From assembly GCA_000091205.1 (NCBI GenBank), contig AP006495.2: a stretch of 64,000 bases of DNA, one strand, 5' to 3'. The stretch comes from Cyanidioschyzon merolae (lineage: Eukaryota). Positions 17,700-61,443 of the stretch are shown here, one piece after another. The notes under the pieces are model-generated. The model saw nothing but the letters and a program-made list of their open reading frames with translations. It was not told the origin of the DNA and did no database searches. Within the stretch, counting starts at the first letter, position 1. Every line of letters begins with the position of its first letter. The translations under genes and the position numbers were made by a program.

Positions 17700-19150
17700 G
17701 CTAAGGTAGGCATAGGCCTGCAGCACCTAAGGGAGCGAAATGTTTCGCCTCTATAGAGTCTATATAGATATCTACCGACGCACAGGCGCATCCTAGTCGT
17801 TTTTGACCGGCACCTGTTATCGGTGTCAGTTGCTCTCCCAGCACACTTCGAGACCGAGAGGCTGCCGCATAGAGTTGTATCGCGTCAGCCCCTCGGGTCT
17901 CGTCTTCAACAACGCACATCGTCTGATCTGGATAGCAGCACTGAAGTCTCGGCTCACGGAAACCATGCGTTTAGTTGCCTCTGTTTGAACTCACAAGTGC
18001 CAGGCGTCCTCGAACGAGCGCCCTCTGTGTCACCACAGTCTCGTAATCATCCCGTCAGGCAAACACGTTTTCTCGTCTATCTCCAATCGACATCTTCTTC
18101 TTCTTCGTTGCTTGCTCTTCTGCGCCTGATTGTCGCCGAGAAGGAGATCTTCCACGTTCTTTCCTGGCAGCCGGCGAAACGGGGCCTCCAGGATCCGCCA
18201 CGCTCACTTCCATCACTTTATTTTGTTTTGAATATGAACCCGATGTCGAACGCGTCTGCCTTGAACCGCGAAGCATGACTTGAATACACGAGTGTGAAGG
18301 CTGAAGCACAGCCGACTTGCCGGACGATACGTTGCAATGACTTTAACGCAAATACAGCTCGGACGTCAGAGGAACCCGCTCATCATCATCGTGATCGCGT
18401 TTCTCCTCAACGGCGAGATACGCATCGCATCCCATGCCTGCCAGATTTGGAGGTGCGCGTATCGACCCCGCTATATAGAAAAAAGAACACAAACGAACAT
18501 CTAACTAGCAACGAGATAACGATTTCTTTCCACCGCTACGATCAAAGTCAAACAGAGGAAACGTTTTCCGTATTGTCGAAAGTTTACCTTCCAGACGAAA
18601 GGTCCCGCAAGCCGGACGAGTCGATCGGGCTCTCGCGCCATATTCCTCCGTAGGGGCGGGTGCTGTAATGAGACCTGAGCAACTCGTCGGCAACGCAGTT
18701 TATTCTGGGACTCGGAGCGGGTAGCCTGCGTCTGCGCGTCGCCCTGGTCGCAGTGGACTCCTAGCAGCTCGCTTCCCGCTGTCGCAGGCAGTGGATCTGT
18801 CAGCACATCTTCCATGCTTCCAGAATGCTGATGAATCTCGATTCCGTATTCACTGAATCATGCCGCAAGCGGACGCCCTCAGTAGTATCCCAAAGCGGCG
18901 CTGTCTCTGTGCTCCATCCGCACCATCTGTAGCGGTGCTATTGCGGGTGCTTACCGCGGGTACTAGATGCTCGACAGAACGTACGAAACTACAAGTACGT
19001 ACAGCAGAATGCATACGTAATGGGACTTGAAGAAAGGATCCAGCATCATGGACGTTTTGTCGATTACCAATACCCATCCCACAGTCGGGGATCCGCGGTC
19101 CATCGAGACGTACTGCCGAATCGCACCAATCAGCGCAATGATCTCCTTGA
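17700..19150 (-). mobile_element. Decayed copy (D) of the conserved roughly 1.3 kb leader of the Fanzor-like repeat, plus a remnant of the ORF N-terminus.
   Basis: Long nucleotide homology to A 38750-40070 (reverse complement) and B 59066-60190. Shared strings include GACGCCCTCAGTAGT, CTATTGCGGGTGCT, AGCCGGACGAG, GGCAGCCGGCGA and CTTGAATACAC. The short peptide MCVVEDETRGADAIQLY...VDIYIDSIEAKHF resembles the ORF1 N-terminus of copies A and B. Confidence 0.5.
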
Positions 19151-19243: not shown

Positions 19244-21226
19244 GTGGCTTTGTCTGGTGCACCAATGGTACCTGGTGTTGCGTTTTTGGCGTGCCCGGTG
19301 CCGCTCCGATGGCAGGTGACGCATCCAGCGTCCGACGGTACCGCGGCACCTCGTCGGCTGCAGCAGTCACGTCGTTGGGCGGCGCTGTGGCAGCCTCGCG
19401 GAACGCGCACTTGGCTTCAGTGCTCGTCTGCCTCTCTCGACAACTCGAACTTGGGACGGACTGAGCGGTTACGGGGCTCAGTGACGCTGTCCAGTCTGGG
19501 TGATGACTGGGTTGAGGCGTTCACGCGGGCGGTGAACGCACTGCTCGAAAACCCGGAGAGCGACGTACCGAAACAGTTGCTCGAGTCGTTACTGGCTCCA
19601 GATGCCAGATGGAGTGGAGACCTGATTGAACGCGCTACAACGCGGGCGTCCATTATCGACAAACTGGAACGGGCTGTTCACTTCTGGGAGTGCGCTGGCT
19701 GGTACATCCCGCCGAACGGTGTACGGTATCGGACAACGGCGGCGGAGCGCACCACTGCTTCCACCTCCGCGACTATCCACGTGGATATAGAGTTTATGGT
19801 GTCAGGACTGTGGCCTTTACCGTGGCGGCCACGCGTCGCCAGTGCTGGCACCTTATCCGTGGAACTCGAGCTCACAGGTGATGTATCCAGGAGCAGGTTG
19901 CGGGCACGGAATATCAAAGACAGACTCGAACAGGCAACACTGCCGGTTCTCACGCAACTTGTACCGAGTTTGTCAGACTTTGCCGCTGTGTACGTTGCAC
20001 CAATGCCGGAGAACGATGCGGTTTTCCGTCGACGTGCCAGTCAGAGCACTCTGCTGGACGCTTCTGCACAGCGGCCGTCAGCGCTTAAGCGCAGTCCTGA
20101 GTACATCGACGGCAGCCACGAGCAACAACCAAGTGAAACCGCTGCCGCATCGCCACCTGCGACACAAGCAGAGCGTCAGCGCGCGAATACCCTGCCCACT
20201 GGACCTGAGAGCGTAAGCCGCGGTGGTTTTCGTTTACCGCCACGATGCTATCGCGAGCCTCCGTATCGACCGTATGTTGAGTGCTTCCTTCTGCCGGGAA
20301 TGACGCGCCCCGCCTCGATAAAGTCAGCGTCGGGGTCGATGTTTCCTGTATTGCCCGCATTCGTTTTTAACTTTAGTCGATTTCGGAACCGTCTGGTGCT
20401 GGATCCTCAACAGTTCGCCTTTGTAACACCTGTTCAGGTGCGACGCTGGCTCCTCGACGAACTCGACCAGAACGTTGGCGCTCTTCTGGATAGAGCCGAC
20501 TCGGTGCCTGCGCCCCGAGAGGAGCTATATCTTCCCGAAGCGTTCGATGTCTTCGATACTGAGGATCTTTTCGACGAGATTCAAAGTCAGATCGCGAGTT
20601 GGTCGTCTCCTGTTGACGATCATGACGCATCGGTGCTGCAATGGCGCATCCCTGTTCCGATTCGTTTTGGACGAGGAAGGCGGGTTGTTGTTGCACCGCA
20701 CCCGTATGCGGATGCGCTGGGACGGGGTGAAACCCCGTCGGACGAAAACCTGAATGGTGCCCCAACGGGTGCTCAACAGTTTTCCTCTGCAGCGCTTCCA
20801 CGCTCCGTTTTTCGGATTCCGAGCGCAGTCTCTCCGGTTACGGTGGAGCGCTTAGAGCGCACGGGCGCTCCGCCGCTGCCTTCGATATCCGCCAACGGCC
20901 GCGTGCTTGTGCGTTATGCGCTCAGCGAAGGCACGGGGTGTGTATTCTTCGCTCGTCGGTTTCGGGGTATGCTCACACCGGGACGTCTCGCTCGGCTCCG
21001 CTACGACCTGCTGATGGATTTGCGTCTTGCTGGTCGCGTGCCGGCTGGTTGGCTACCCCACGAGTCCCGATGGCGACTTTCTTGTTATGATTGCTCGGTT
21101 GGATTCGATGAAAACGCGGAGATCTCCGTTGCTGTTTACCGCTCGAGTCGCCCGCTGTTTTGTATCTTTGAACTAGCACTTGAGGTGCCGCGGGCTTTCT
21201 CACAGGCAGATACGGCAGCATCGTAA
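19244..21226 (+). CDS. Hypothetical protein with a possible NTF2-like fold region.
   Basis: Uninterrupted 660-aa ORF with no recognisable catalytic motifs. Coding status is uncertain in a GC-rich genome. Confidence 0.4.
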   Translation: MALSGAPMVPGVAFLACPVPLRWQVTHPASDGTAAPRRLQQSRRWAALWQPRGTRTWLQCSSASLDNSNLGRTERLRGSVTLSSLGDDWVEAFTRAVNALLENPESDVPKQLLESLLAPDARWSGDLIERATTRASIIDKLERAVHFWECAGWYIPPNGVRYRTTAAERTTASTSATIHVDIEFMVSGLWPLPWRPRVASAGTLSVELELTGDVSRSRLRARNIKDRLEQATLPVLTQLVPSLSDFAAVYVAPMPENDAVFRRRASQSTLLDASAQRPSALKRSPEYIDGSHEQQPSETAAASPPATQAERQRANTLPTGPESVSRGGFRLPPRCYREPPYRPYVECFLLPGMTRPASIKSASGSMFPVLPAFVFNFSRFRNRLVLDPQQFAFVTPVQVRRWLLDELDQNVGALLDRADSVPAPREELYLPEAFDVFDTEDLFDEIQSQIASWSSPVDDHDASVLQWRIPVPIRFGRGRRVVVAPHPYADALGRGETPSDENLNGAPTGAQQFSSAALPRSVFRIPSAVSPVTVERLERTGAPPLPSISANGRVLVRYALSEGTGCVFFARRFRGMLTPGRLARLRYDLLMDLRLAGRVPAGWLPHESRWRLSCYDCSVGFDENAEISVAVYRSSRPLFCIFELALEVPRAFSQADTAAS

Positions 21227-28389: not shown

Positions 28390-28650
28390 GCTGTTACCGA
28401 TGATCGACTCTAAACCGTCTCAAATTATCCCATGATCGACTAGGTATGTACCAGAGCGTCTTGACGAATACCTCTTGTCGTGTTGAGGCACTGATCAACG
28501 AGCTTTCTCGTGCCTGCTGAGCTGCAGGTGCAGCGGCACTGGATTATCCACTGGGCGTGTCGTGCGTACCGTGTGTGTCGAGTCTGGTGGCGGCAACACG
28601 TGCGCTGCGTACGTCTTGCCGCGGAAGTGACGAAATGCCAAGGTAGTGAG

Positions 28651-29176
28651 AAACGTAATCCCTGATAGCAAAATGTATATCTTCGTATTCAATACATGAA
28701 CGCCTCTGATTCCCTTTGGAGAGAAGGACTATGCGAAGGCACTGAGAAACCTAATCCCTGATAGCATCATGTATATCTTCGTATTCAATACATGAACGCC
28801 TCTGATTCCCTTTGGAGAGAAGGACTATGCGAAGGCACTGAGAAACCTAATCCCTGATAGCATCATGTATATCTTCGTATTCAATACATGAACGCCTCTG
28901 ATTCCCTTTGGAGAGAAGGACTATGCAGGCACTGAGAAACGTAATCCCTGATAGCATCATGTATATCTTCGTATTCAATACGTGAACGCCTCTGATTCCC
29001 TTTGGAGAGAAGGACTATGCGAAGGCACTGAGAAACCTAATCCCTGATAGCATCATGTATATCTTCGTATTCAATACATGAACGCCTCTGATTCCCTTTG
29101 GAGAGAAGGACTATGCAGGCACTGAGAAACGTAATCCCTGATAGCATCATGTATATCTTCGTATTCAATACATGAA
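28651..29176. repeat. Tandem minisatellite of about 5.6 units of 96 bp (93-96 bp variants).
   Basis: Direct repeats of GGCACTGAGAAACCTAATCCCTGATAGCATCATGTATATCTTCGTATTCAATACATGAACGCCTCTGATTCCCTTTGGAGAGAAGGACTATGCGAA. Unit starts are at about 28651, 28738, 28834, 28928, 29024 and 29118. Each unit contains the inverted repeat CATGTAT...ATACATG. Confidence 0.95.
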
Positions 29177-29247: not shown

Positions 29248-30078
29248 GTGCTGGTGCCTCACGCCCTGAGCATGTCAGGCGCTGCTCAGAAAACCAAGTC
29301 AAAGCACGCAACGTTTACAGAGTGCCTGCAACGGGAAGCGGAACGCGTGCAGCGACGAGAGCCGGCAGCGCTCGCGACCTGGCTTGCGGAACTTGCCGCT
29401 GCGAGCGACGACGCACAACAATCCGAAGAACTAGTTACGGAATGGCACAAGTTTTTCCAAGACTTTGTTGCACGCCAGCAGTTTCGTGTCTTTGTGACCG
29501 GTGATCAGGTGCCAGACCAGGGCGGTCGAGCAATCGCGCTCGCAGTTCGGCACAGCATCCGTCGTTCGGTGGAAACGGAGACAAAGCCAGAGGTTGCACG
29601 GATGACTACCGGAGCTTGCGTTACCGGGGCAGATGCTGCCCAGAAACTGCTCCCGGGGCTGTTACGACCAGACGTGCTTGTCTTGGCACCGGCAGCGGAG
29701 CGGGTGTGTCGGGCAGCGGCTGCAGTGGGAGCGCTTTCGCGCTTCCGCCGCTCCCGTTGGACTTGTTTGAAAGTGATCGCTCGTCACGAGCGACTAGAAG
29801 TTAGCATAGAACGCTGTAAGGCCTTGGCAAGAACACAAGAACGCCATAGGAACGGTGTCATCGTGCTGGGAACGCCTCATCGTATCAGCGAGTTGATGCA
29901 GCGTCAAGTACTTGGCGCACCGCGGAAAGCACTAGTACTCGATATGAGCCTTGACGTGAAATGCCGCCGTTTGTTGCGTATGCCTGGTGTACAGCAAGCT
30001 GCCCTGCATTGTCTGCGGATGATTGCAAAAGATCTTGCAGGTGATCATAGCCTTCCGGAGCTCGTCTTCTACGCCTAG
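29248..30078 (+). CDS. Hypothetical protein with faint resemblance to a degenerate helicase domain-1 or CMS1-like fold.
   Basis: 276-aa ORF with VIVLGTPHRISELM and LVLDMSLD. No firm family assignment. Confidence 0.3.
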   Translation: MLVPHALSMSGAAQKTKSKHATFTECLQREAERVQRREPAALATWLAELAAASDDAQQSEELVTEWHKFFQDFVARQQFRVFVTGDQVPDQGGRAIALAVRHSIRRSVETETKPEVARMTTGACVTGADAAQKLLPGLLRPDVLVLAPAAERVCRAAAAVGALSRFRRSRWTCLKVIARHERLEVSIERCKALARTQERHRNGVIVLGTPHRISELMQRQVLGAPRKALVLDMSLDVKCRRLLRMPGVQQAALHCLRMIAKDLAGDHSLPELVFYA

Positions 30079-34709: not shown

Positions 34710-37700
34710 TCACGAGGCTAGCGATTGCCAGGAAGCCGACGAAACAGGAGCCAGCAACGATGGTAGACGCATCAGCGCCTGGTCGACTTCAGCACCGTGA
34801 TCCCGTTCGGGTTTGTTCACGACGGTGCTCGCGAGGAAGAATTCGCAGCTGCGTCGGCGCAATGGATGTGGACCGCTCAACTGCAAAAGCGACGCATCGA
34901 GTTCTTCGGAAAGCCCCGGATTCTCGCTGATCTCCTGGCGAACGCGGTCGAATAACGCTCGACTGTAGACTCGGCGACCGGGCATCGGCCTGGATGACGG
35001 TAACGTGGTCTGTGTCGACGGCACTCGTTCGTCAGCAACAACAGACGCTGTTGTATGCACATCCGCTTCTGCACTCGACGACGACGACGACGACGACGAC
35101 GAGCTATCGGGCATGGCGCTGGTGGACGATTCCCCGGGCCCGGTGGACGTGTTCGTCGTGAGCGAAAAGATACTCTCGTCGTGTTCATAGTACTGGATGA
35201 GTTCGCGTGACGGATATCGCTGAAAGTGCTCGGAGAGCGCCAGCCCAGTTCGAATCGCAAACGCATACACGTGCATGAACAGATTCGGAAAGCGACTTGC
35301 AAAATATGTGTACAGATTGGAGTTGGTCGATGCTTTGGCACGAGTTGTCTCGAGCGTGGAGGTGTTCACGGCGTTGTCGCGGGAGCGCACTTCCATGGGG
35401 TCATCCTCCACCGGAATGGGGCCCAGGAGCGCCTTCACCGCATCCGGCTGTTGATGGTAGTGGGTGCGCTTGTTGCGAGCGAGACGCAGCAGATCAACAA
35501 TGCTCGAACCGTTATAACTCCTCCCGCGCAGGCTCAGCAGCACACTGGTATCCATACGAAGGCTCCAGTTGCCCAGCGGGCCCAGCACTGTCGACTCGCA
35601 GCCCCGTTCGATCTCTTGTCGAAGGTATCGGCTGTCTGGGTGCTCGAACAGCGCATCACTCACGTCAATGAGAAACTGGAGTTTCCGAGCGTCACTCCAG
35701 AAAAACGGATGACCAAGGAGCGCCTTTGCCGACGGACGCCGCTCTGGTTCATGCTGAATCGCAAGGCGAACGAGGTCAAAGGCCTCGGGCCAAGCACGAA
35801 GCGCGCTGAGGTCCGCTGCACCCGCCAGGATGTTCGCATCACGTTGAAAGACAAGCTCTCCGAACGGGTGACTCCCCATTGTTAGTACATAGTAGGTAAT
35901 ACAGCCGACACTGAAGATGTCAACTGCTCGAGTTAGCCGCGCAGGTCGTGCCGCATCCGCTCCACCGTTCTCCGAATGCGTCATTGACTCGCAGGCGGTT
36001 GCGTCGCCAGCTCGCTCCCGGGCATCATCGACAGCGCTTGTTTCGCTGTGCACACTATTGAGTCCCTCGAAAAGCGAGGCGCCCCGGAGAACCTCCGGGG
36101 GTCGCCACCCCACCGAGCCCACAGCAGTCGCACCAGCTGTGAAGGAGCCCCGACCCGCATCCAACCGTTTTGCAAGACCAACGTCTGCGATTTTCACGAT
36201 ATCATCAGACCCTATGGCCAGCAGCACATTCGCCGGCTTCAGGTCGCGATGTACAATGCCGTGATCATGTAATTCCGCAATACCTAGCAGGAGACCACGA
36301 AGCGCCCGGACGGTGGCAGGCGGCGGACCGAGCTGCAGCGGACCCGCCGCGCGTCTATCGACCTCTGTGGACAGCTCGTCCAGCAGTGGACAACGAGTCG
36401 CAGGAAGCTCGCCTCGTTCTACACGATCCTGCAAGGAACCTGCACAAAGCTCCAGCGCTACGTAGATAAAGTCGCCGCTCTCCTCCATGGCGTAGTATCG
36501 CAAGATGTGTTGACAGGATTCGTCGAGTTCAATCAGAACCTCAATTTCTCGCCGCGCAATTTGGTAGAAACTTTTCAAAAGTCGTTTGACTGCAACCCTG
36601 CGGTATCCAGGTAGAAGGAGTCCCTCGTAGACACTAGTTCCATGGCTCCCGTATCCGATGACGTTCGGCGAAATGAGAAGCCGTCCCACTTTCTGGTAGC
36701 CGGTCGGCAACGGTGCCTCACTGCCTGTTGCAGAGTCCGTTACAGAGCGCGGGCGTTCGACTCGCTGAATTGGAACCGGCTTCGGTACCAGCGAAGAGCG
36801 CTCAAAGCCTCGTGACCTGTCGTTCTCCTGGGCGCGGGCAGCTCGCGGCTGCGTTGCGCCAGTCATCATCATCACCCGCTTCGTCTCCCGACGCCGCAAC
36901 ACTGGTGGCGGACTCGGTGTCCTTTGACGCTCGCTCGAGTGACGCTGCTCACGCTCGGTCCGTCGCATGCGCCATATGGTCCAGAGTGCGAGCGCTAGAG
37001 CTAGCGGCCCAATGCCTGCAAAAAATATCGCGACCACAAGAAGCACGCCTCCGTGGACGGGCGCGTGGTCATACACCGATGTGCCAAACGAGCTGTAAGC
37101 GTTCTGTGGCATCCCGCGCGGCTTTCGATACAACTCAGCAGACGGCGGCAGGCACATTTGCTGCCATTCATCCCGGTATCGCAAAGTCGTAGGCGGGTCC
37201 GGTGATTGCAGCGGCACGGGGCGAGACCATTGCCAAAAGTGCCGGGTAGCGCGAACGGCGTCGCTGGTGCCTCCATCAGGCAGTGCTACCGGTGAGCTTG
37301 CCGCAGTGTCTGTGATAAGAACGATATCGCCGATAGCGCGGAGCGATAAGATCGGGTATGGAAACTCTGCAGACCACATCGTGGTGCCTCTGTCGGCGTC
37401 GCGTACGACGACAAAGCGTCCATTATCTGCCAGTATCGCAACATAGCGAGCCTTATTCTGGACAGGTCGCGCAGCTCGGGGCACTTGCGGGTCTTCGGGA
37501 TCGAGCGGAGACTCTTCGAGGGTATCACTGCTCACCATGTGGCGCGCGGGACAGCGTGATTCCCCCGCCAAAACTCTTCGTCCGAAAAGAAAGGGTGCTA
37601 AAAACTCGCCCGCATAATGCGCGGGTTCGTCCAATAGATACATTTCATAGTCAGCGTAGGTCACGTTCCAGCTTGCTTCTCCTGTTAGTGGATCCACAAA

Positions 37701-38504
37701 CCGCATGCCCGAGTCCGTCCGCGTAATCACGAGCACTGGTTCCGCATTCTCTTTTTCAAGGGGCTGCTCCGAGTGCCTCTGATCCGGGCGCGAGCCGATC
37801 CCAGTTGCACCGCCTCCAGCTGAGGTCGCATCATCCCATTTACAGCGCCTGCTTGCCTCGTCATCCTCGAAGGATATGCGACGGAGAAGCTCGCCATCCC
37901 GGAGCCGCACTGTAAACGCCCGAGTCTCGCGCCGTTGTATTGGAATGCCGTACGGCACCGCAGGTGCAGGCGCTGGCTGCGATGGAAGCGGTTTGCTTAC
38001 CTCCGCAACACGAGCGTCGCCATGATACGGCTCTGGGGACGGCACCGACTGGTCTCGATTAAGAGTGTTAGCCGGCGGTCCGTCTGTGCCCTTCCCGGAA
38101 CGCTGGCGTTGCTGCGTCGACGCCGCTGCCTCCCTCCGCGCAAGACCCGACGTCGGGCTATGCCCTAGCTGGTCGTCGCTCTTGGCGCGTGTATTATACC
38201 CGCCATCCAAAGCCACAGGGTCCGTGTTAATATGCCACAAGGTTTGTCCCGACGGGACGTCCAGCGCGCGCACGGTACCGTCTAACAGGGCGGCGATGAG
38301 CATCGTTGGCCGACCAGCCCGCGAGCCAGTTGCACCTTGGGGAAAGAGCTGGTCGCCTGAGCTCAACTCAGAGTTCTTTCGTGTGGAGCGGTGCTGGCGA
38401 AAGGCGTCCGCTCCCAGCGTGAACAGAACACACTGCAGTACGATGGGTGTCAAGAGCAGCAGGGCGAGAAACGGGCGAAACCGCCCTCTCCGCGCACTGC
38501 CCAT
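34710..38504 (-). CDS. IRE1: IRE1-type serine/threonine kinase/endoribonuclease. It has a signal peptide, a luminal domain, a TM segment, a kinase domain and a KEN RNase domain, followed by a Ser-rich C-terminal extension of about 200 aa.
   Basis: Signal peptide MGSARRGRFRPFLALLLLTPIVLQ begins at the ATG at 38504. TM segment LLVVAIFFAGIGPLALALALWTIW. Kinase motifs HRDLKPANVLL and ADVGLAKRL. IRE1-specific HPFFWSDARKLQFLIDVSD and the KEN C-terminus LRLARNKRTHYHQQPDAVKALLGPIPVEDDP...YFASRFPNLFMHVYAF. The track ORF begins 207 nt upstream at 38711. Confidence 0.9.
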   Translation of the reverse strand: MGSARRGRFRPFLALLLLTPIVLQCVLFTLGADAFRQHRSTRKNSELSSGDQLFPQGATGSRAGRPTMLIAALLDGTVRALDVPSGQTLWHINTDPVALDGGYNTRAKSDDQLGHSPTSGLARREAAASTQQRQRSGKGTDGPPANTLNRDQSVPSPEPYHGDARVAEVSKPLPSQPAPAPAVPYGIPIQRRETRAFTVRLRDGELLRRISFEDDEASRRCKWDDATSAGGGATGIGSRPDQRHSEQPLEKENAEPVLVITRTDSGMRFVDPLTGEASWNVTYADYEMYLLDEPAHYAGEFLAPFLFGRRVLAGESRCPARHMVSSDTLEESPLDPEDPQVPRAARPVQNKARYVAILADNGRFVVVRDADRGTTMWSAEFPYPILSLRAIGDIVLITDTAASSPVALPDGGTSDAVRATRHFWQWSRPVPLQSPDPPTTLRYRDEWQQMCLPPSAELYRKPRGMPQNAYSSFGTSVYDHAPVHGGVLLVVAIFFAGIGPLALALALWTIWRMRRTEREQRHSSERQRTPSPPPVLRRRETKRVMMMTGATQPRAARAQENDRSRGFERSSLVPKPVPIQRVERPRSVTDSATGSEAPLPTGYQKVGRLLISPNVIGYGSHGTSVYEGLLLPGYRRVAVKRLLKSFYQIARREIEVLIELDESCQHILRYYAMEESGDFIYVALELCAGSLQDRVERGELPATRCPLLDELSTEVDRRAAGPLQLGPPPATVRALRGLLLGIAELHDHGIVHRDLKPANVLLAIGSDDIVKIADVGLAKRLDAGRGSFTAGATAVGSVGWRPPEVLRGASLFEGLNSVHSETSAVDDARERAGDATACESMTHSENGGADAARPARLTRAVDIFSVGCITYYVLTMGSHPFGELVFQRDANILAGAADLSALRAWPEAFDLVRLAIQHEPERRPSAKALLGHPFFWSDARKLQFLIDVSDALFEHPDSRYLRQEIERGCESTVLGPLGNWSLRMDTSVLLSLRGRSYNGSSIVDLLRLARNKRTHYHQQPDAVKALLGPIPVEDDPMEVRSRDNAVNTSTLETTRAKASTNSNLYTYFASRFPNLFMHVYAFAIRTGLALSEHFQRYPSRELIQYYEHDESIFSLTTNTSTGPGESSTSAMPDSSSSSSSSSSSAEADVHTTASVVADERVPSTQTTLPSSRPMPGRRVYSRALFDRVRQEISENPGLSEELDASLLQLSGPHPLRRRSCEFFLASTVVNKPERDHGAEVDQALMRLPSLLAPVSSASWQSLAS

Positions 38505-40071
38505 AGCAGTCTCACTGTTCGGTTCGTTACAGACAATCCTTCTGTTAGGGATTAAGAAACGCTCCCCAAAATCACCCACGTTGAGAAAGAAAAAAGAAAA
38601 CTTGCCTCCAGAGGCTATGCAACGATAGCTTCTAGAGACGTTTCGAATGGTGGCATGGCCTCCGAACCGTTGTACCCCGTGGCAAGATCGAGTCTGTACA
38701 TAATTATCCAAAAGTTGAAGGCGCTCGATACGCCGGACAGCGCTGCGCGGCGCTGCTACCGGGACACGTTGCGGCTATCGCGCGATCGCGTATCGCGTGA
38801 CTGTCGATTGAATCCTTTTTGTCCAGATATATTCCTTATTTGGACAGAGCGATATGGACGCAGGTTGTTTTTTGATGGCAAAACGCTGATATGGACCATG
38901 GATGCCAGTCTGGGGGATAGATATTGCAACAAATGAAAGCGCTCAGCAATGTTCACTCTCGTTCCGAGTTCCACGACGCACATTTTCGCACGGCTATACT
39001 GGTCGCTTTGCACGTTCCCTGGTGCGCCGCATACTGGCAGTGAGCACCCGCAATAGAGCCTATGCTGCTCGTGCGGATACTGAACGGAGACAGAGCGGCT
39101 TTGCTATATCAGTGGGGGTGTCGGCTCGATGCGTGGTGCATTCGACACGGAACCAGGGTACATTATCATTCTGGGGCCTGCCAGCTGCGAATGCAGACCC
39201 ACTGCCTGTGGCAGCGCGAATTGATTCGCAGGGAGTCCTCTGCGACCAGCACGACGCCCAGAAGGAGCTTATCCGCTCCGAGTCCCAGAGTAACCCGCGT
39301 TTCGGACGAGTTGCGTAGACCTCACTACAGCACTAGGGACTGGGGGAAGCGTGAAGCACGAGCCCGGGAGACTCTTGCGGCTCGCGGGACCCTCTGCTTC
39401 TACGGTAAACTTTCGACCATACGGAAAGCTTTTTGCCCCTTTTGACGTTTATCGTAGAGAGGCAAAGACATCTTTATATCGTTGCTAGGTAGTAGTGAGT
39501 TTCAGTTCTACGTTCGATATAGTGCGGTCGGTTAGCGCTCCTCCGTATTCAGCATGCATGGGACACGACTCGCATGTCGTCGTTGAAGGGAAACACGATC
39601 CTAACTATTCGTTGACTTGCTATTCTACAGTACAAGATCTATTTGCGTGAAAGTCGTAGCAAAGTATAGCTTTCAATTCAATCGCGTGTCAAGCCTCAAC
39701 TAAGTGTATTCAAGTGATTTTTTGCGGTTTATAGCAGAAGCGTTCAACGTGCGTTGTTTATCCAAAATTAAAAAATGGGAATAGTATAGAGAAGGAGGTG
39801 GAGGATCCTGCAGGCCGAGTGTCGCCGGCTGCCAGAAAAAAACGGAAAATAATGCCGAGTCCAGAAGAAAAGGAGGAGAATAAGAAGCAAGGGAGGGAGC
39901 CCCCGTAGTCAATGGCTGCACGAAAGACGACACTGCGACGACATGGTAGTCGAAGCCTGTCTTCCCAAACATATCAAGGATCCCTACAAGCAAAAGATGC
40001 GAGAGGCCATCAGAAGCCGTATCCATTCGTACTCCAGGTAGGTTCATAAGGTTTCTGGAGGACTGAATCAT

Positions 40072-41914
40072 ATGTTGAGGGAGATATACGATGACGTTAC
40101 GGACACCAAACCGGTCGAGGTTCCGGAAGAATTTTTCGACAAGACCTTTATTCGTCACCTGATGGTTAGAACAGGAGAAACGTCGGGGGGAAATGATGGA
40201 GTGCATGCACTCCACGAAAACTACGCAGAATACCACTCCAATGGTACTCGATACAGCGTTCACCCGTGTATTTACGAATACGGGGCGAAGAAGTACCTCA
40301 CGAACCTGAAGAACCATATGACGATGAACCTCGAACGTTTCATGATACGCACCGTGTTTGCACTTTATCCGGGCCTGTCTTGCAATAGGATATGGGGCAT
40401 CATCGAAATCATCTCGAACGATCGTCAACATGAAGATGAGATCGAATTCGTCGACAAGAAGACATCACGCAGGAGAAAGAATGAGGATTCTGTAATCCGT
40501 ACGGTTATGCAAGAGCACCGTGCGGTACTGGGCTGGCGAATCCAACAGACAAGATATCAGAGTTGAAAAAAGATAAGGAAAGATACTATCGCCTCGTCCC
40601 GCGCCATGTTGTGTTTCTGGACCGAGAACTCGAACGCAAGGCAGAGGTGAAGCTGGGTGAGGAAAACAATGAAGAGTGGGAGAAACGGAATGCAGTCCTA
40701 ATGGCGAAGCGCTTCAACGTGGTTCCAATGTGCAAGATCAAGTCACATTTTATGACTATCGACTTCGGCGTCCTTTACGGCATAATGAAGGAGATCAGTC
40801 CGGAGTTCAATGTTAGTAGGGAGGAACTCTCCGGTGAAAACCGGGATACGTACAGTAAGAAGAATATCTTCTATTTCAAACGTCTCAAAGTGAGCAAACA
40901 AAAGGTATTTGCTGGGTTGATCGAAATCGATGGAGTAGTCATGTGTGTACACTATCGGCGGTTGACGAAAGATCGTCCAGTCCCGCCCTCTGCTGCGCCC
41001 TCGACGAAGCATGAAGAAAACGAACAAGCGGATCCTGCGACCGAGAAAGTGCGAGGTACCGACTTTGACGTTGGCACGGACCCCGGCAACGCAAATATCA
41101 TAAGCATCGCAGAACCCAAGCGTGCCGTGCGGAAGATGGTATTGACGGTAAATTACGTCGGAAAGGCATGCGTCTTTTGACATCCTCGAGAGCAAGATAC
41201 TATCGAGAATCGGGAATCATGAATGCGAAGAACAAATTCGACAAATAGAATTCAGGAATGAAAGAACACCTGGAAGCTTTGAGCGAGGTGACAAGCCGAG
41301 GAGCGGACTTTGAAGCTTTTCTGAAATTCGTGGAAGTTCGCGTTGCTCATTGGGATGCGCTATGGAAAGAGTACACCAAGCCCAGTTGGGCTCGTCTGCG
41401 TATGAATCTATACGGTGGGAGGCAGCGGGCGATCGCGAACTTTTTCAATCAGTTGAGCGCCTTGAAGGAGAATGAAAGTCAGAAGCTTGTTGTAGCATAC
41501 GGAGCAGGGCGCTGGAAGACCCAAAAGGGGTGTATGCCAGCTCCGACGACGAGGGTGAACAAGGAGTGCGCAAGGCGTTTCATTACGATACCCGTAGATG
41601 AGTTCCGAACATCGTATACACACCATGAACTGGGGTGTACATTTCAAAGAGTGGAGCTGGAAAAGTGTCAATGGAGCCCTGAGGAAATCGCAAAGTACGG
41701 ACTGCTGACGGAGGAGCAAAGGGAAAGGAGGGCAAAAGTTCAAGGGCTACTCGCACTGGTGAGTACAACCAGTGACGGCAAGAAACGTATGGAGTTTGTG
41801 AACCGAGATTTTAACGCCGCTCTCCATATACGGAGATGTGCGGTGCTGGAGGAAAACCCCCAGAGTAGACAAGAGGGAATTTTGATGGAGAACCTCTCAA
41901 GTCGAACTATATGA
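40072..41914 (+). pseudogene. TnpB/Fanzor-like (OMEGA-family RuvC) nuclease gene of about 614 codons, broken into three frames in this copy.
   Basis: RuvC-I-like motif [30 protein letters not shown] segment where TnpB has the RuvC-II Glu, consistent with a Fanzor1-type rearranged site. Zinc-finger-region motif VDEFRTSYTHHELGC...KC. C-terminal RuvC-III motif FVNRDFNAALHI (RDxNAAxNI). ORFs 40072-40566, 40563-41180 and 41258-41914 are in frames 1, 0 and 2. A 1-nt deletion relative to B near 40530 causes the first shift. Confidence 0.7.
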
Positions 41915-42080
41915 GAAAAAATTGGAAGCAGTAGTAGGTGGCCGGTCCAAAAAAACTGGGAGGCGTCTGCACGTCAGTTGGAGACGTTTTGTCTAGGGCG
42001 CGTTCACCGCCACTACTGTACACCGTTGGCGTCGTTCGAGTGCGAAAGGCGTTTGCAGTTGGCTTCGTCACGCATCCATA
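41915..42080 (+). ncRNA. Candidate omega-RNA / right-end scaffold region of copy A (hypothesis).
   Basis: Non-coding tail immediately after the stop, conserved in A, B and C. Shared strings include GTCTAGGGCGCG, CGCCACTACTG and GGCGTCGTTCGA. The inverted segments CAGTAGTAGGTGGCCGG / CCGCCACTACTG and CGTCT..AGACG could form stems. The position matches where TnpB and Fanzor guide RNAs are encoded. Confidence 0.3.
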
Positions 42081-53259: not shown

Positions 53260-56132
53260 TGGAAGCGAACGCTGAACACCGGCTGTCTGTGCAACTGCTA
53301 GCTGTTTGCAGACGCGTATAGCACAAGATCGCGAGGCATGTGAACGTCTCGACGTCGACCGGAGTTGATTCCCTAGCAAACCGAAAGCGGAGCTCGAAAT
53401 GCTTGATACGATGTACGCTCTCAGTGTCGATCTCGTATGCATCTCGAGCACCCACACGTACCGCTCGTGTACGCGTAAGCTGGGCAATCGCTCCACGAGT
53501 AGCCATGCACGAGGCTCTGTACCTTCTATTCTTGATGTTACCGCGGTTCGCGGCAATCCGGAACGTCTGGCTTTCGAAGTTTTTTCAAATGCGCGTCCTC
53601 ATCCTAGACTTTGAGGTCATCGTCCGCTGAGTAGAAGCGTCTCTAAACAGCACATCTCTAGAACAACAGCACGCAGGATTTTAGCATGGACGACACTATG
53701 TAATATACAGAGCACCTGCTAGACGAGCAGAACATGTTTGGTTTGACGCATTCGGAGTTGTGTGATGTTTGGAGCGCTGTCGCGTGACCCAAGTCGAGTT
53801 TGTCGGGCGCAGCGTGCGTCAGACTTGCGCGACGAGCTGACTACTCTGTGGACTCGCTTGCACCAGGTATTTCGCCGAATTCGCTGGGCAGCGCTCGTCA
53901 CCAGATCCAGTGCCGATACGCTACGAACACGAACGAGTCCTTGGACACATCTAGGTTACGGGGTAGGTGCCGAAGTTGGCGATCACACTGCCAACGGTAT
54001 TAGCGCTCCCGTAACTTACATATGCGCGGTTCAGGCAGCCGACTCGGTGCGAGTCTGACTATTGGAACCCGAAGCCTGCACTGGAGGGCAGACCAAACGA
54101 ATTCCGTTGAGCAGCAGCCTCTCTTGACTTGGGCGTGTGCTGGTGGCAGCCCTGTTTTAATGTTATATGGCGTTACTTGCGCTGCAGCGATACATTCGCG
54201 CCTCATTCCAACGGAATCGTACCGTGCTCGAACGCAGGTACAATGTACGTTTGTCCTAGTCAGATGGAACGGATGATCGAAGGTAAATCGAGCGATTACG
54301 CTGAATTTTGGGTCTATTCTCATGAGCATCAACACCAGCCTTTGTAGGCTTTTCTTTACGCGACTGCTTCCATTTCCATCACCATACGTAGAGCCTTGAA
54401 TGCACTGGTATATCGATTCCCTCTAGTTTCATTATCAGCTGTCGAAGCATGTTGATACCAGCCTCCAAATTCCAAATATGCTTCTTTCTGATGTTTTCTA
54501 CCTATTTCATGCACAGAAAGACGTTGCGATGAACGACGCGCTTACCATCCTCATTATCTTGGTTCGCAGTTTCGGTGCGTCCTTCGCACTAGTCAGATTT
54601 GGACGACGGTGAGATGTACCCATGTGTCTACCACAGCATTTCTTCTGAAGGATGTCCCTTGGTACATGGGCGCTTGATTCATCGATCAGTGCATGCGCTT
54701 CGTGGACACAGAAGGGTTTAGTTGAGAATATCCTCAGTTCTCCGCTAAAGGCGCCGCACCTAATGATCACTGATCTTTCCTGGGCAAACGTCTCGGATGC
54801 TGCTCTGTGCGCCACGTACGGAAGCGCAAGCTGTTTCATTCGACGGAGCTTTTGTAAAATCCGGTAATATACCTTAGGAAACAAGTCCCGGAAGGACATT
54901 ATAGGCAGGAGAACAAGCCTCGAAATTCCGATTCGTCTGCACCCGCTTCGTGCGAAGCTCCGTCGCGCTCTCAAAAGGATGCAATTGCTGCGATGGCGAC
55001 AGCTCGAGACCCAGACCCTTTTGCCTGCACACTGAGGAGACGGGAGCCTTAGGATGATACCCCCAAAAAGGTACTATGTAATTTTTAAATGACTATTTCT
55101 CGATCGCGACCGATAGAGAAGGATGCATGTTTGAAGGGATCTCGATTATGTGACGTGGCAAGTTCATCGAACTTTCGGCACCTGCTTTTGAACAAGTCTT
55201 CAAATCTCGAGGTACAGCTCCTTTTTGGGGTCAATCCTGCATCGCTAACTGCTCCACCCGCCTGCTCCCGTGGAACAGCAAGATCGGACGCTCGCAGAAC
55301 GCATGATTTGAGCATGCTGCACGGAAGAAAAGTAGACGAATCGTGGCGCATACCTACGTATTAGAGAAAGGTATCGGATCGTCTTTTGCACCCTTCCTTG
55401 AATGCCTCGCGAATCATCTAGACGACACTGACGTAGCGAATTCCAACTCGAGAGCTTCGAATGAGCCACTCTGAATTGAAGGAAGAGCATTCTATAAATG
55501 CCAAGGAATCCGAAAGTCCTTATCGATGCGCTTCGAATGCCGAGGCTGTACACCCAGAAATAGTTTGGTCAAATATCGAAATACGGTAGCGGAGCTTGCT
55601 CGACGGAACACCACCTGGTCTGCGACGGGTGTAGAAATCAGCGCGAATGCCGTTGACGCATTTCCCAGGCGCGCAAAGCATCCCGCACGATCGATCATGG
55701 AGCGTATTGACGCTGCTCCGATGCCTAGAGTTATCGAACGAAACAACGAGTTGTCTGCGTCAAAAAGGCATCCGAAGGAAACGCAACCGAGATATTTTCA
55801 AGGCGTAAAACCGACGGAAAGCCTTCGGGGTTCACAGTGCAACGCTAGGCGCTTTCGGAAAAGCGATGGCACTCGTTTGATGCATCTCTCCGTCTCGACT
55901 CCAGTTCACGTTGGCTTCGGCGCTTGTTTGTTTCGCGGAGGCAGCTGGAGCGCCCGATGTTGCCCCCCGAACGCAGAGCACAGACGCTGGGCGTAACGTA
56001 CATGCAACCAAGTCTTTTACCTAGAGAAATAGGGTCTGCATCTATAAGGTACATACACAGAGACGAATGCAAACAAATATCCTCCATTGGTGCATAGGAA
56101 CAAATCTTTCAGAGGAATCTGGTTTCGCGTCC

Positions 56133-57023
56133 CTAGTTCCCAAAGGCGCCCAGCAGTTGCTCAACAGCAGGCTTGACACGTTTTTCATACCAGGACGGAT
56201 CCGGACAGAGCTCCTGGATTTTGCGCGCCATTGCTTGCCAGCCGTCTTTAACACGGCTCAAATCCAGCCCAAGTTCATGGTAGAGCTCCAGTAGTAATGC
56301 AACGTTGCGTCGGTGCAAAAAGTCAACTGGCGGTGCATTCTCCTCCTGAGCCAGCACCGCATAACTCACAATGCGAAGCTGATCGCGCATGTCGTTGGCG
56401 AGCTGTTCCTCGATGGCTTCGGTGCGGCTCAGCGTTGCCAGATTTTTTCCCTCGTAGCATTCTTTCTTCACCCTTGCAGCCGCAATGCCAGCTTCGATGA
56501 TCGCCTCCGCATTGGTCGTAATGACTGCCGCCACGTCAGCGCCCTGAAAACTCCTCCTACCACGATATGACTCAATCTCTTCGATAGGGACGAACATCAG
56601 CGCTGTATCATTTTTCCGGCAGGTGTTCGCGGCTTCTGTATGGAAGCCGTCACCACACCGAAGAAGCGACTTGTGACTGCGCAAAAACGCCCGCAGGGCC
56701 TGCGCACGCCTCGACATGTGATCCGTCTTTGGGACCGAAGTTGGAGCGGGCGCACCATTGTTCTGGGAAGCAGCACCAGCGCCGTCACGCGGGCCGGCAC
56801 CCACCGGGAACGGTGGAGTTAATGTCGAGGTGATCTGCAGCGCCCGACAAGCACGCTTTGCGTTCGCCAACGAGCATGGGGAAACCCGCCGGAGCGACCT
56901 CCCGTGCGAGGAAAGCCAACGGCTACTCCAAACGAAGCCAGTCGACGCCTTCCTAACCAACGCTACACTTGAAGCCTTTCGATGTTTCGGTGAATAATGC
57001 AAAAAAATGTTTGTAAAAGCCAT
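56133..57023 (-). CDS. Hypothetical conserved-looking protein; the start is ambiguous (ATG at 57023 or at 56717).
   Basis: Uninterrupted ORF. The C-terminal half is not low-complexity (FVPIEEIESYRGRRSF...NAEAIIEAGIAAARVKK...LLELYHELGLDLSRVKDGW). The first 25 or so codons overlap the tail of repeat copy B. Confidence 0.4.
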   Translation of the reverse strand: MAFTNIFLHYSPKHRKASSVALVRKASTGFVWSSRWLSSHGRSLRRVSPCSLANAKRACRALQITSTLTPPFPVGAGPRDGAGAASQNNGAPAPTSVPKTDHMSRRAQALRAFLRSHKSLLRCGDGFHTEAANTCRKNDTALMFVPIEEIESYRGRRSFQGADVAAVITTNAEAIIEAGIAAARVKKECYEGKNLATLSRTEAIEEQLANDMRDQLRIVSYAVLAQEENAPPVDFLHRRNVALLLELYHELGLDLSRVKDGWQAMARKIQELCPDPSWYEKRVKPAVEQLLGAFGN

Positions 57024-60000
57024 GTTCGAGCGCACGACACGCACCAACAAACGCCCCTCTAAAGTCGAACGACGCCAGCGGTATGCAGTAGTGGCGTGTG
57101 ACGCGCCCTAAACAAGACGACTCCAACTGACGTAGAGACGCCCACCAGGCGTTCTCGGCGGTCCATGTACTAATGCTTTCAATCATGTCTCATATAGTTC
57201 AACATTGGGAGGTTGTCCAATAAAGTTCGCTCTTGTCCATTATGAGGTCTTCTTTCCATCACCGCACATTTGTTTATATTAATTGCGCCATAAACATCTC
57301 GGTTCACAAACTCCATACGTTTCTTGCCATTAGAAGTTGTACTTTCTAATGCGAGCAATCCTCGAACAATCGCCCACCTTTCCATTTGCTCTTCCGTCAG
57401 CGCTCCGTACGTTTTTATATCCTCAGGGCTCCGCTGGCACTTTTCTCTTTCGGCTCTCTGAAGTGTACATCCCAACTCGTGGATTGTATACGATGTTCGG
57501 AACTTATGTACAGGTATCCTAGCGAAACGCCTTGCGCAATCCTTATATATTCTTGTCGTGGGAGCTGGTGTAGTCCCTTTTTTGGGCGCCCAGCGCCCTG
57601 CTCTGCACGCTACTACGAGCTTTTGACTTTGATCCTCTTTGAGGGCACTGAACTGATTGAAAAAGTTGACGAATCCACGCTGCTTCCCACAGCACAGATA
57701 CATTCGCGATAGAGCCCACATGGGCTTTAGATATTCTTTCCAAAGCGCCTCCCAATGAGCAACGCGAACTTCCATGAATTTCAGAAAAGCTTGAAAGTCT
57801 GCTCATCGGATCGTCAGCTCGCTCGAAGCTCTCAGGTGCTCCTTGATTTATGCATTCCATGTCTCAGTTTTCTTCCTCGCATTCTTTATACCGGATTCTC
57901 GATAATATCTAGTTCTTGAGAACCTCAATAGACGCATGTCGCTCTCACGTAAGCTGCCGTCAATGCCATCTTCCGCACGCTTGGGAGCAACGATGGTTAT
58001 GCTATTCGTATTCGCAGGGTCCGCCCCAACGACAAAGTCGTTATCCTGCACCTCCTGCGTCGCTGGATCTGCCTCTTTGATTTCTTCATGCTTCGCAGAG
58101 GGCGAAGCGAAAGGCACGATAGGACGATCCATCTTCAACCGCCAATAGTGCACACACATGGCTACACCATCGGTTTCGACCATCCCAGCGAATACCTTTT
58201 GTTTGCTCACTTTGAGACGTTTGAAATAGAAGATACTCTTCTTACCGTATGTCTCACGGGCTTCACCGGAGAACTCCTCCATTGTAGCATCGAACTCGGG
58301 ACTGATCTCTCTCATGATGCCATGAAGGGTTCTGGAGTCGATACTCACAAAATGTGACTTGATGTTGCACATTGGAACCACGTTGACGCGCCTCCCCATT
58401 AGAATAGCCTTCCGTCTCTCCCACTCTTCATTTGTCTCTACACTCAGCTTCATTTCCGCCTTGCGTTCGAGCTCTCGGTCCAGAAACACGAAATCGCGCA
58501 GAATGAGGCGATAGTATCTTTACTTGTCTTTTTTCAACTCTGATATCTTGTCTATTGGATTCGCCAACCCCAGTACCGCACGGTGCTCTTGTATAACCGC
58601 ACGGATCACAGAAGCTTCATTCGTGCTCCTGAGTGACGCCTTCTTGTCGACGAATTCGACCTCATCTTCATACTATCGATCGTTCATGGTGCCATTGATC
58701 ATCGCCCATATTCCTTTGCGAGAGACGCCCGTGTGGAGTGCAAACACGGCGCATATCATGAAACGTTCGAGGCTCTCTGTTAAATGGTTTTTCAGGTTCG
58801 TAACGTACTTCATCGTTCCGTATATGTAAATATTCGAGTCACCCTTGCATCGAGTACCCTCGAAGCAGAATTCCGCGAAGATTTCGTGAAGAGTGCGAAC
58901 CAGCTCATTTTCCCTCTGCGCTTTCCCTGTACCAAGCATCAAGTGACGAATATGTGTCTGGTCGAAGAGCTTGTCCGGAAGCTCGACCGTTTCCATGTGC
59001 GTCACGTCGCGATACGTCTGCATCACCAAATGCATCAGTCCTGTCGACGCCTTGACAATACTCATGGAGTACGAGTTGACATGTTTTTTGATAGTGTCTC
59101 GAAACTTTTTCTTATATGGATATTCTTTATACGTTTACGAAGACCGGCGTTCACCACCATGTTGTCATAAAGTAGTCTTTCTTGCATGCATCGACGTAGG
59201 GCCTCCCCCTTTTGCTTCTTCATCTCCCCCTGTCCTCTGGACTCCACACTGTTTTCGGTATTTTTTTTCCGGCAGCCGGCGATAATGGGCCTACAGAATC
59301 GTCGACTAGCTTTTTCATAACTTTCTTTTTTTAGCTTTTCTTCTCAAAACAGAACTCTCTTTGAACGCGTCTATTATGTGTTGCGAGAAAACTCTTGAAT
59401 ACACTTGTCTTAGGTTCGAAACACATATGAACTGAAAAACTGTACTTTGCTAGGGCTCGAACGGAAATCCAACTATTACAGCTAAACAACACGCTCCTGA
59501 TCACGATAGCGTTTTCCTTCAACATCGGCGGCATTCGCGTCGTGTCTCATGCCTGCCTGATTTCCCACGGGTGCTAACCGATAGCTCTATTTAGAACAAA
59601 GAAAAAAGAACAGAGACTCGCAGTCCGCGAGCAACGATATAGCGATTTCGTACCCGCTCTACAATAAACGTTGAAAGAGGAAAATCATACAGAATTTTAG
59701 AAAGCTTACTTTCCAGGCGCAAGGTCCAGCGAGCCGGACGAGTATGCAAGGCTCGTGCTCCATGCTCCCCCAGTGGCAAGCGCTTTAGTGCGACCTGACC
59801 AACTCATGCACCAAGCAGTTTATTCTTGCGCGAGGAGCGGGTATGGTGCAAGTGGTCATCGCATTGCTCGAAGATGATTCCTAGTATATTGCTTCGCGCT
59901 GCCGCAGGCTGCACGTCTGTCTCCGCAGTTTGCAGGCTCCCTGAATGATAACGAGTCCGGATTCCGTCTCAGTGGAGCCACACCTCGAGACGACGCCCTC

Positions 60001-60190
60001 AGTAGTCTCGCAAAGCCATTCTTTCGCTGTGATGAGGCTGCACCTTCGGTGTAAGCAATAGGGAAGGCTCGGCACGCTAGAGAACTACAAAACGGCCAGC
60101 ACATCTCGAACGAATTATAGGTAATGGAGTTTGAAAGTAGGCTGAAGAATATCGAGCGCTTTCATTTCTTTCAATATTCATTCCGCTGTC
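56960..60190 (-). mobile_element. Copy B of the Fanzor-like dispersed repeat (leader + ORF + tail).
   Basis: Collinear nucleotide homology with copy A across the leader (59066-60190 versus A 38750-40071), the ORF and the tail (56990-57178 versus A 41915-42080). Boundaries are approximate. Confidence 0.6.
57179..59065 (-). pseudogene. TnpB/Fanzor-like nuclease gene, copy B, interrupted by nonsense mutations.
   Basis: Paralogous to the copy-A ORFs, for example MFLDRELERKAEMKL...[16 protein letters not shown]...[18 protein letters not shown] and KRMEFVNRDVYGAININKCAV. In-frame stops include a TAG at 58675-58673 (where copy A has CAA), a TAA at the ELKKDK junction, and a TGA where copy A has GGA before ADFxAFLKF. 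Confidence 0.7.
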
Positions 60191-60396
60191 AGCGATCCAT
60201 AAAGCAAGTCAACATTTTATCATCAAATGAAACGCCAGAATCAGGTGCTCACCATTTAGGAACACGCGCCGACGCAAATATCGCCGCCGTTGGTCGGCAG
60301 GTACGGCCCGACCTCGCGGGGCAGGCTTCAACTTTGCTGAACGTTCGCTGAACCTCACGTTTCAATTTCTTTAAAGCGTCTGCTGAGGCTTGTCCA

Positions 60397-61443
60397 ATGG
60401 TTGACGAGAAAGGCGATCTCTGTTTATGGGAGCATCTGGTGGCTGGCGGCGGGGCGACACTCTCCGCCGTCAGCGTTATGCACCCGTTGGACACGATCAA
60501 AATCTACATGCAACGCGCTCAGGTGGCAACCGCAGGCGGCAGCGCTAACGTCCGGCCGACAATGCTCGGCGCTGCGCAAGAAATCTTGGCTCAAAGAGGG
60601 CCCGGAGGATTTTACGCCGGCCTAGGTGCCAATCTCAGCGGGCAAGTGCCAGCAGGCGCGATCAAGTTTGCAACTTACGAGCTGCTGAAGCAACACGCCG
60701 TGCAGAAGCGGCTCCCGGCTGCAGCACAGGGTTGGGGCGAAGTCGCCTCTGCAGCGCTGGCGTTTCTGGCCTGCTCTGTAGTTCTGGTCCCCGGTGAGGT
60801 CGTAAAGAGCCGCCTCCAGGCCGGTTTGTATCCGAGCTTCCGCGAAGCGCTTCTGCGTATCATTGAGCAGGATGGCGTTTCTGGACTCTACAGGGGCTAC
60901 TGGGCCACAGTTACGCGTGACGTCCCGTATACGATGCTCGAGTTTGGGCTATACGAGCAGTTTAAACGAGCGTGCATGTGGTCTGTTAAGCGCGATCGAC
61001 TACATTCCTCAGAGGAATGGACCATGGGTGGCCTCGCTGGCGGCGTAACCGGTTGGTGTACCACCCCGCTCGATGTCATTAAGACGAAACTCATGACGTG
61101 TGCACGCTCGCAATACCGCGGCTACTGGGACGCCGCTCGTGACGTTTGGCATCGAGAAGGGCTGAGCGGCTTCTTCACCGGGGGACTCGCCCGCGTGCTG
61201 TGGTTGGTCCCGTTCACAGCGGTGTTCTTCGGCAGCCATGAGATCATCAAGCGATTTTTACGAAGTCGTAAGCGGCAATATTCTACGTTGCGAAGCACCA
61301 GAATCCCTCGGATGGATCCGGAGGCGTCTGCGTCCTCTAACTGCACCTGTCGATACAAGTCCATCAAGTGGTTCGGATCGAGTACTCTTATCTGTGACGT
61401 CCGGATCAAGCCTGCGTATCGCTCGCCTCGACATCCGTTCTAG
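60397..61443 (+). CDS. Mitochondrial carrier family protein, S-adenosylmethionine carrier-like (SLC25A26/Pet8).
   Basis: Three carrier repeats with HPLDTIKIYMQ, PGEVVKSRLQ and TTPLDVIKTKLM, matching the SAMC signatures FPLDTIKTRLQ, PTEVVKQRAQ and TTPLDVAKTRI. ATG at 60397. Confidence 0.85.
   Translation: MVDEKGDLCLWEHLVAGGGATLSAVSVMHPLDTIKIYMQRAQVATAGGSANVRPTMLGAAQEILAQRGPGGFYAGLGANLSGQVPAGAIKFATYELLKQHAVQKRLPAAAQGWGEVASAALAFLACSVVLVPGEVVKSRLQAGLYPSFREALLRIIEQDGVSGLYRGYWATVTRDVPYTMLEFGLYEQFKRACMWSVKRDRLHSSEEWTMGGLAGGVTGWCTTPLDVIKTKLMTCARSQYRGYWDAARDVWHREGLSGFFTGGLARVLWLVPFTAVFFGSHEIIKRFLRSRKRQYSTLRSTRIPRMDPEASASSNCTCRYKSIKWFGSSTLICDVRIKPAYRSPRHPF

Follow-up and report, generated by a model that had tools for sequence, protein, structure and literature searches.

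The conserved leader found upstream of three degenerate nuclease genes in this part of the Cyanidioschyzon merolae genome is, with a probability that we put at roughly 0.85, the non-coding 5' end of CMe-1A, a TE family of about 3.2 kb that has neither TIRs nor a transposase of its own and whose only ORF is Fanzor1. We analyzed one stretch of 64,000 bp, hereafter the window, in which a preliminary description had singled out the interval 38750-40071 as a leader shared by copies A, B and D. The result carries little weight as a discovery, since the family, its consensus and the correspondence of its 5' 635 bp to another TE were all published in 2013 from this genome. Its use is to clear a candidate mystery leader, to correct the start of the ORF and, with the nuclease ORF as internal positive control, to find the leader neither coding nor folded.

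The repeat itself is real and far above chance. In a self-comparison of the window, A 39089-42039 and the opposite-strand segment B 60025-57065 aligned at 74% identity along 2983 bp (E=0), and A 39037-39844 aligned with D 18957-18155 (70% over 815 bp, E=2e-91). A three-way alignment recovered approximately 1 kb of collinear homology 5' of the nuclease ORF in A, B and D. As a reference we took the 3169-bp CMe-1A consensus (Additional file 2 of Bao & Jurka 2013, PMC3627910) and aligned it to the window; together with the other two comparisons it bore out the collinear homology claimed for the three leaders. The copies matched the consensus as follows:

Copy A, 38874-42031, + strand: consensus 2-3145, 83% identity.
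Copy B, 60224-57073, - strand: consensus 2-3145, 80% identity.
Copy D, 19111-18155, - strand: consensus 11-964, 78%; the entire 5' non-coding region and about the first 20 codons.
Copy D remnants, 18025-17856 and 17814-17774, - strand: consensus 2840-3011 (72%) and 3051-3092 (79%); as one feature 17774-18025, consensus 2840-3092, the RuvC-III motif and 3' end.
Copy C, 64000-63645 (64000-63643 in the self-comparison), - strand: consensus 2809-3169, 84%; a 3' end cut by the window edge.
Copy E, 3680-3922 (3670-3912 by tblastn), + strand: consensus 2737-2982, 72%; an old fragment of the nuclease C-terminus.

CMe-1A was described as having ~150 copies in C. merolae, each ~80% identical to a ~3-kb consensus, as encoding a Fanzor1 protein in an ORF listed as one exon, and as lacking TIRs, while TSDs could not be determined; CMe-1 also forms part of the Fanzor1 alignment of the same authors (Bao & Jurka 2013, PMC3627910). 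Similarity of the reported order was found for A and B over nearly the whole consensus and for D over positions 11-964, and the host is the same, three proteins of the window being identical to BAM81146.1, BAM81150.1 and BAM81151.1 of C. merolae 10D. No inverted repeat joins the ends of A: internal pairs of 14-22 nt, of chance quality, were the best that a search turned up. A, B and D thus belong to CMe-1A, a family known since 2013 from the same genome, and they are alike because they descend from one transposon family. The downstream gene had been correctly recognized as Fanzor. What is conserved in the leader is the terminal region of a TE already known, namely the 5' end of CMe-1A that corresponds to TE-N2_CMe, and the consensus holds no reading frame there, an outcome that the preliminary description had itself named as refuting its reading. 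Searching with pieces of the nuclease by tblastn, we also located a RuvC-III remnant (17984-17892) directly downstream of the D leader. In the alignment to the consensus, D lacks positions ~965-2839 and keeps both ends; with a 5' region and a 3' remnant, it is an internal-deletion derivative.

The leader is composite, and its boundaries, with those of the adjoining parts of A and B, are:

38750-38872: unrelated flank, no match among related loci.
38873-39510, + strand: copy A, TE-N2_CMe-like module, non-coding; consensus 1-635 by global alignment, with coverage steps at ~38870 and ~39525.
39511-39785, + strand: copy A, core upstream region, putative promoter and short 5' UTR; consensus 636-905, common to all family copies.
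39786-40071, + strand: decayed Fanzor N-terminus, 286 bp, codons 1-95 of the consensus ORF (734 aa).
39786-41996, + strand: copy A, Fanzor1 (CMe-1) pseudogene, with frameshifts near 39900, 40530, 41121, 41854 and 41899.
41997-42060, + strand: copy A, hairpin-bearing non-coding 3' terminus, which ends with ...GAAAGGCG, followed by TTTG...
59319-60225, - strand: copy B, 5' non-coding region; TE-N2-like 59599-60225, core 59319-59598.
57052-59318, - strand: copy B, Fanzor1 pseudogene and 3' end; ATG kept at 59318-59316.

Three of the limits first proposed for the leader have to be moved. Homology begins at 38873 and not at 38750, coverage by related loci being zero upstream of ~38870. The non-coding part measures 913 bp (38873-39785) instead of about 1.3 kb, the remaining 39786-40071 being the N-terminal coding part of the nuclease, frameshifted in A. 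Likewise, the nuclease ORF had been started at 40072, and the ancestral ATG position is 39786. On our reading, the distal 635 bp (A 38873-39510) derive from TE-N2_CMe, a short non-autonomous element in its own right that was fused to the Fanzor unit on its upstream side; they now provide the 5' terminus of the CMe-1A subfamily, presumably as a cis-acting terminus. The proximal 275 bp (39511-39785) are the Fanzor unit's own, most likely a promoter and short 5' UTR. The last 286 bp of the interval are decayed N-terminal codons that include a KKRK motif resembling a nuclear localization signal.

The consensus ORF runs from 906 to 3110, comprises 734 aa and begins MEKEVEDPGGPVSPAAGKKRK. In copy A the start codon has changed from ATG to ATA at 39786, and a +1 insertion lies near 39900. 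Copy B reads in a single frame from ~59120 to the C-terminus with four in-frame stops; upstream of ~59120 it carries a 1-bp frameshift at ~59233 and a 2-bp insertion near 59124. The conserved stretch TCGCCGGCTGCCAGAAAAAAACG, situated just before ORF1 of the preliminary description, is coding and encodes SPAA(G/R)KKRK, which looks like a nuclear localization signal. With the reconstructed B protein as query we found ~60 close relatives in JGI metagenomes, including the 752-aa protein P0001. The N-terminus of P0001 (VSSPEEKEEK...) corresponds to A 39852, so that the ORF extends well upstream of 40072. The RuvC-like motifs GTDPGN, DEFRTS and NRDFNAA(L/I)(H/N)I are present in the translations of A and B and in P0001; when we looked for a CxxC...CxxC zinc finger between RuvC-II and RuvC-III, only two cysteines (HELGC...EKCQ) were found there. 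A live Pfam scan gave no match for pieces of the nuclease ORF or for P0001, only a weak precomputed PF26935 (DUF8286) being on record, and a phmmer search of P0001 against PDB gave no match. In P0001 (L005 11223-11367), P0007 and P0012, 2-4 tandem acidic repeats of ~25 aa immediately precede the RuvC-I motif GADPGN; the repeat is single in A and B, and the multi-copy relatives are intact or near-intact.

Independent evidence for the composite leader came from 80 metagenome loci carrying the nuclease N-terminus, all from Cyanidioschyzon populations; one of them (L042) is 97-98% identical to the window at 53448-64000. None of these loci covers copy A before ~38870; coverage is ~20 at 38975-39525 and ~65 from 39550 on to the 3' end at ~42050. 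The TE-N2 module is found in only ~12 of ~40 distinct copies, about two thirds of the family, including the locus that encodes P0001 (L005), being without it, and copies of this kind begin at ~consensus 645-648. In the ~12 distinct copies that have the module, its junction with the core and its 5' end are identical and the flanks are unrelated. The module also occurs solo, at L081 1859-2495, where it ends at the same position as in fused copies, and at L030 426-1, where the contig ends within it and consensus 2-423 is represented; in L033/34 and L061/68 it is present without the core leader. The coverage step, the ends of solo modules and the starts of copies without TE-N2 thus reveal a module boundary at ~consensus 636-648 independently of the published account, according to which the 5' 635 bp of CMe-1A are 95% identical to the whole of TE-N2_CMe, an element of ~70 copies with no TIRs (PMC3627910). 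An origin of TE-N2 from a poly(A) retroposon, whose 3' end it would represent in antisense, was considered and abandoned; the run of T at the 5' boundary of TE-N2 measures only 4-8 nt. A suspected LINE zf-RVT C-terminus was also discarded, Pfam giving no match for the 353-aa ORF upstream of L007 or the 272-aa ORF upstream of L005.

The same loci disclosed a wider modularity: at least four (four or five) upstream sequences abut the core at one position, ~consensus 645-648. The alternative modules are TE-N2 in sense orientation, a TE-N2-like sequence in antisense (S2), S1 and S3. The core starts CGCGCTCGGTGAGCGCACC..., with a GCGCTC-GGT-GAGCGC palindrome at ~consensus 645; S1 ends ...GCGTCTCGCGCGGTGCACGCAT and S2, the reverse TE-N2-like module, ends ...GTCAATGAAAAAAAGAAT. 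In all S2 copies (L007, L010, L018, L020, L032, L034, L037, L043-L046 and L075) the junction, ...AAAAAAAGAAT followed directly by CGCGCTCGG, is identical to the nucleotide, and the 5' end of the TE-N2-like sequence abuts the core at the same nucleotide as sense TE-N2 does in CMe-1A. L005 has the core alone, preceded by sequence not common to other copies and lying inside other repeats. The new part of this analysis seems to be that, in related Cyanidioschyzon populations, a single core position is the junction for at least four different upstream modules. Several of the Fanzor copies are adjoined, in either orientation, by an ORF-like repeat that is 270-350 aa long and contains the Cys-rich motif CPCCGDEIPETLTYLGLQCPRWKQE; it was seen at L005 8832-9650 (-), L007 ~475-1530 (+) and L075 ~3670-4280 (+). 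The repeat gave no Pfam match and may be another unclassified TE.

How such a family arose is a matter for more tentative proposals. The composite of TE-N2 and Fanzor would have moved as a unit; as the tree is star-like, with no sorting of ORF similarity by leader type, we infer this unit amplification from the shared junctions and not from phylogeny. Alternatively, the history may have been one of repeated independent fusion or of recombination between copies. A Fanzor unit with a fixed 3' end and core start and variable 5' modules could reflect either 3'-anchored mobilization that captures or tolerates new 5' ends, in a Helitron-like or one-ended manner, or mutual targeting of ends by TE-N2-like elements and the Fanzor unit; we consider this proposal speculative and rather unlikely. 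If true, either form of it would provide a handle on the transposition mechanism of transposase-less Fanzor1 elements. Non-autonomous elements of Helitron type, which we considered for the host TE, have the termini 5'-TC...CTRR-3', insert into AT (or TT) and carry a 3' hairpin that lies 10-12 nt from the end. The present copies have hairpins close to their 3' end and are flanked on either side by T-rich sequence; a CTRR terminus is absent.

A different account would have the core Fanzor unit, from ~consensus 645, inserting repeatedly and site-specifically beside TE-N2-like ends, which would make the leader a pre-existing neighbor. Such insertion would explain why four or five different upstream sequences, one of them TE-N2-like in the opposite orientation, meet the core at one position, why L005 has a core alone within unrelated sequence and why ORF similarity is not sorted by leader type. 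However, the junction within each type is identical to the nucleotide, which fits descent from a single junction better than repeated events, and a single 3169-bp consensus could be built from ~150 copies (PMC3627910). Nor did the junctions as a whole share any target motif. When we looked for alleles with an empty site, the only orthologous contigs (L001-L004, L040 and L042) proved to carry the same insertions. On balance we judge repeated insertion of the core to be quite improbable, and we retain the reading of the leader as the 5' end of CMe-1A.

Within this 5' end, the core region is present in ~65 loci, 39 of them distinct, and has a GC content of 43%, versus 52-56% elsewhere. Two blocks stand out, with most columns at least 90% conserved among the 39 distinct copies:

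~39580-39600, + strand, copy A: conserved block GTTGAAGGGAAACGCGATCC, in 39 distinct copies.
39728-39750, + strand: putative TATA-like box followed by CAGAAGCGTTCAA, columns conserved to 90% or above across the 39 distinct copies.

The TATA-like box reads TTTATAG in A (39728-39734) and TATATAA in most relatives, is followed by CAGAAGCGTTCAAAG and lies ~52 nt upstream of the ancestral ATG. The two blocks suggest that the core region is probably a compact promoter for Pol II together with a short 5' UTR, in which case most of the leader would not be co-transcribed with the gene. The suggestion that the leader is a promoter or ncRNA module is therefore plausible in its first half for the proximal 275 bp, with the conserved TATA-like block; its second half found no conserved fold to rest on.

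At the opposite end of the element, coverage falls from 62 to 4 loci at 42025-42075, marking a sharp 3' end. The terminal stem covaries between copies, CGUUUUUC/GAAAGGCG in one form versus CGUUCGA/UCGAACG in another (as DNA, CGTTTTTC..GAAAGGCG versus CGTTCGA..TCGAACG; window 41950-42060). The alignments suggest that homology runs ~10 nt (TTTGTTGTTG) past the published consensus end. By analogy with TnpB and Fanzor systems, a hairpin-rich 3' end would be expected to be the place of the guide-RNA scaffold.

The leader has no conserved RNA fold on either strand. Rfam gave no match in the region, and RNAalifold returned -1.5 kcal/mol without covariation for 39 distinct core leaders. For the TE-N2 module, 160-column windows (13-17 copies) gave -0.2 to -2.7 kcal/mol on the + strand and 0 to -2.2 on the - strand. 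One local stem, TTTCCCCC-N19-GGGGGAAA at ~consensus 556-592, shows a few compensatory changes and is followed by a T-rich run, and this hairpin may be a small structural element. In IscB systems, a guide or omega-like RNA is encoded 5' of the gene. One could imagine that the distal module encodes a structured ncRNA working with the nuclease, for instance one of this 5' type, and it is within ~consensus 520-620, the best conserved part of the TE-N2 module, that the stem with its compensatory changes and T-rich run is located. Yet consensus folding energies are near zero on both strands, and about two thirds of family copies do without the module, among them L005 with its 752-aa P0001. The module is also found solo, away from any nuclease gene, both in our loci and in the published survey (PMC3627910), and the hairpin-rich region with covariation that one would expect is already present at the 3' end of the element. 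We hold such a structured ncRNA in the distal module to be very unlikely indeed.

No gene is maintained in the leader, and coding signal is absent from it. Across 15 copies, variability in the three codon phases of the leader was 0.210/0.206/0.202, with no 3-nt periodicity, versus 0.167/0.133/0.111 for codon positions 3/1/2 in the first 900 nt of the nuclease ORF. As the latter values come from largely the same copies, the periodicity test has power, and the family thus appears to have diversified under protein-level selection on the nuclease only. The statement that the leader holds no long ORF stands: in copy A a frame of 138 codons (38902-39318) stays open, and it is interrupted in nearly all of the others. 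Our 15-copy consensus keeps ~130 open codons in one frame; the leader of the published consensus is open for at most 118 codons, inconsistent in frame with ours, and neither consensus contains a credible ORF. A Pfam profile search with the leader translations gave no match, and a tRNA scan of the region yielded nothing relevant. The short peptide strings reported as recurring between copies do exist; they arise when the nucleotide block that is best conserved (~consensus 527-620) is translated. Within one copy they fall in different frames (in D, GKLSTIRK in frame 1 and TLIVAVERNRYLVA in frame 2), which indicates conservation of nucleotides and not of protein. Decayed upstream exons of Fanzor had been offered as one explanation of the leader, which is trivially true of 39786-40071, decayed codons of a single-exon ORF (906-3110, 734 aa), and fails for separate exons; the proposed second degraded gene of the transposon found neither codon periodicity, nor an ORF in either consensus, nor a Pfam match.

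We give next to no credence to a leader made of decayed upstream Fanzor exons or of the remains of another transposon gene, for instance a transposase since lost: the 138 open codons of A, the ~130 of our consensus and the recurring peptide-like strings are all that speak for it, whereas the leader varies without the 3-nt periodicity seen in the ORF of those copies, its open frame survives in hardly any other copy and not in the published consensus, the strings lie in different frames with no Pfam match, the consensus ORF is a single exon from its ATG at 906, and in DNA of 56% GC open frames are expected on both strands.

Neighboring ORFs in the window are of eukaryotic type and include an IRE1-type kinase/RNase, a mitochondrial carrier and a histidine acid phosphatase. 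Copy A lies head-to-head with the IRE1-like ORF (34710-38711, - strand), ~160 bp from its longest possible start (interval 38711-38873), and the transposon thus occupies the upstream region of that gene. Two ORFs of the same length, 660 aa, were noted, one beside D (19244-21226, + strand) and one beside C (61668-63650, - strand). The latter is BAM81151.1, CCR4-NOT subunit 4-like, and the former has no Pfam match; DNA similarity between the two was not detected in the self-BLAST. A tandem array with a 96-bp period and units 94-97% identical occupies 28635-29176, just upstream of an ORF at 29248-30078.

Among known systems, the closest is CMe-1A itself (Bao & Jurka 2013, Mob DNA 4:12), whose architecture is the same: a 905-bp non-coding 5' region, a single 734-aa ORF, a short 3' end and no TIRs. 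Relative to its consensus the window copies differ by decay, A having lost its start codon and acquired frameshifts, B having acquired stops and D an internal deletion. The 635-bp non-autonomous TE-N2_CMe is, by an identity taken from the paper, the first 635 bp of CMe-1A (PMC3627910), and its equivalents in the window are A 38873-39510, B 60225-59599 and D 19111-18478. TE-N2_CMe exists as an independent element, whereas in the window the module is always fused to a Fanzor unit.

Bacterial TnpB elements of the IS200/IS605 and IS607 groups have their omega RNA at the 3' end. As in those elements, the RuvC-type ORF of CMe-1A reaches almost to the right end, which is hairpin-rich with a covarying terminal stem. 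Unlike them, CMe-1A is without TnpA, resides in a eukaryotic host and has an N-terminus resembling a nuclear localization signal, and its long 5' non-coding region with a fused second TE has no counterpart in IS200/IS605 or IS607. A parallel for the variable 5' ends is provided by the MCi-2 Fanzor1 subfamilies of Mucor circinelloides (PMC3627910, Fig. 8A), in which a common nuclease-bearing 3' part is combined with differing 5' regions; the pattern in Cyanidioschyzon, with TE-N2, S1, S2 and S3, is the same. Host and sequences are different, and TSDs are a feature reported for MCi-2. The modular 5' ends of these elements in environmental Cyanidioschyzon genomes may bear on how transposase-less Fanzor1 elements move.
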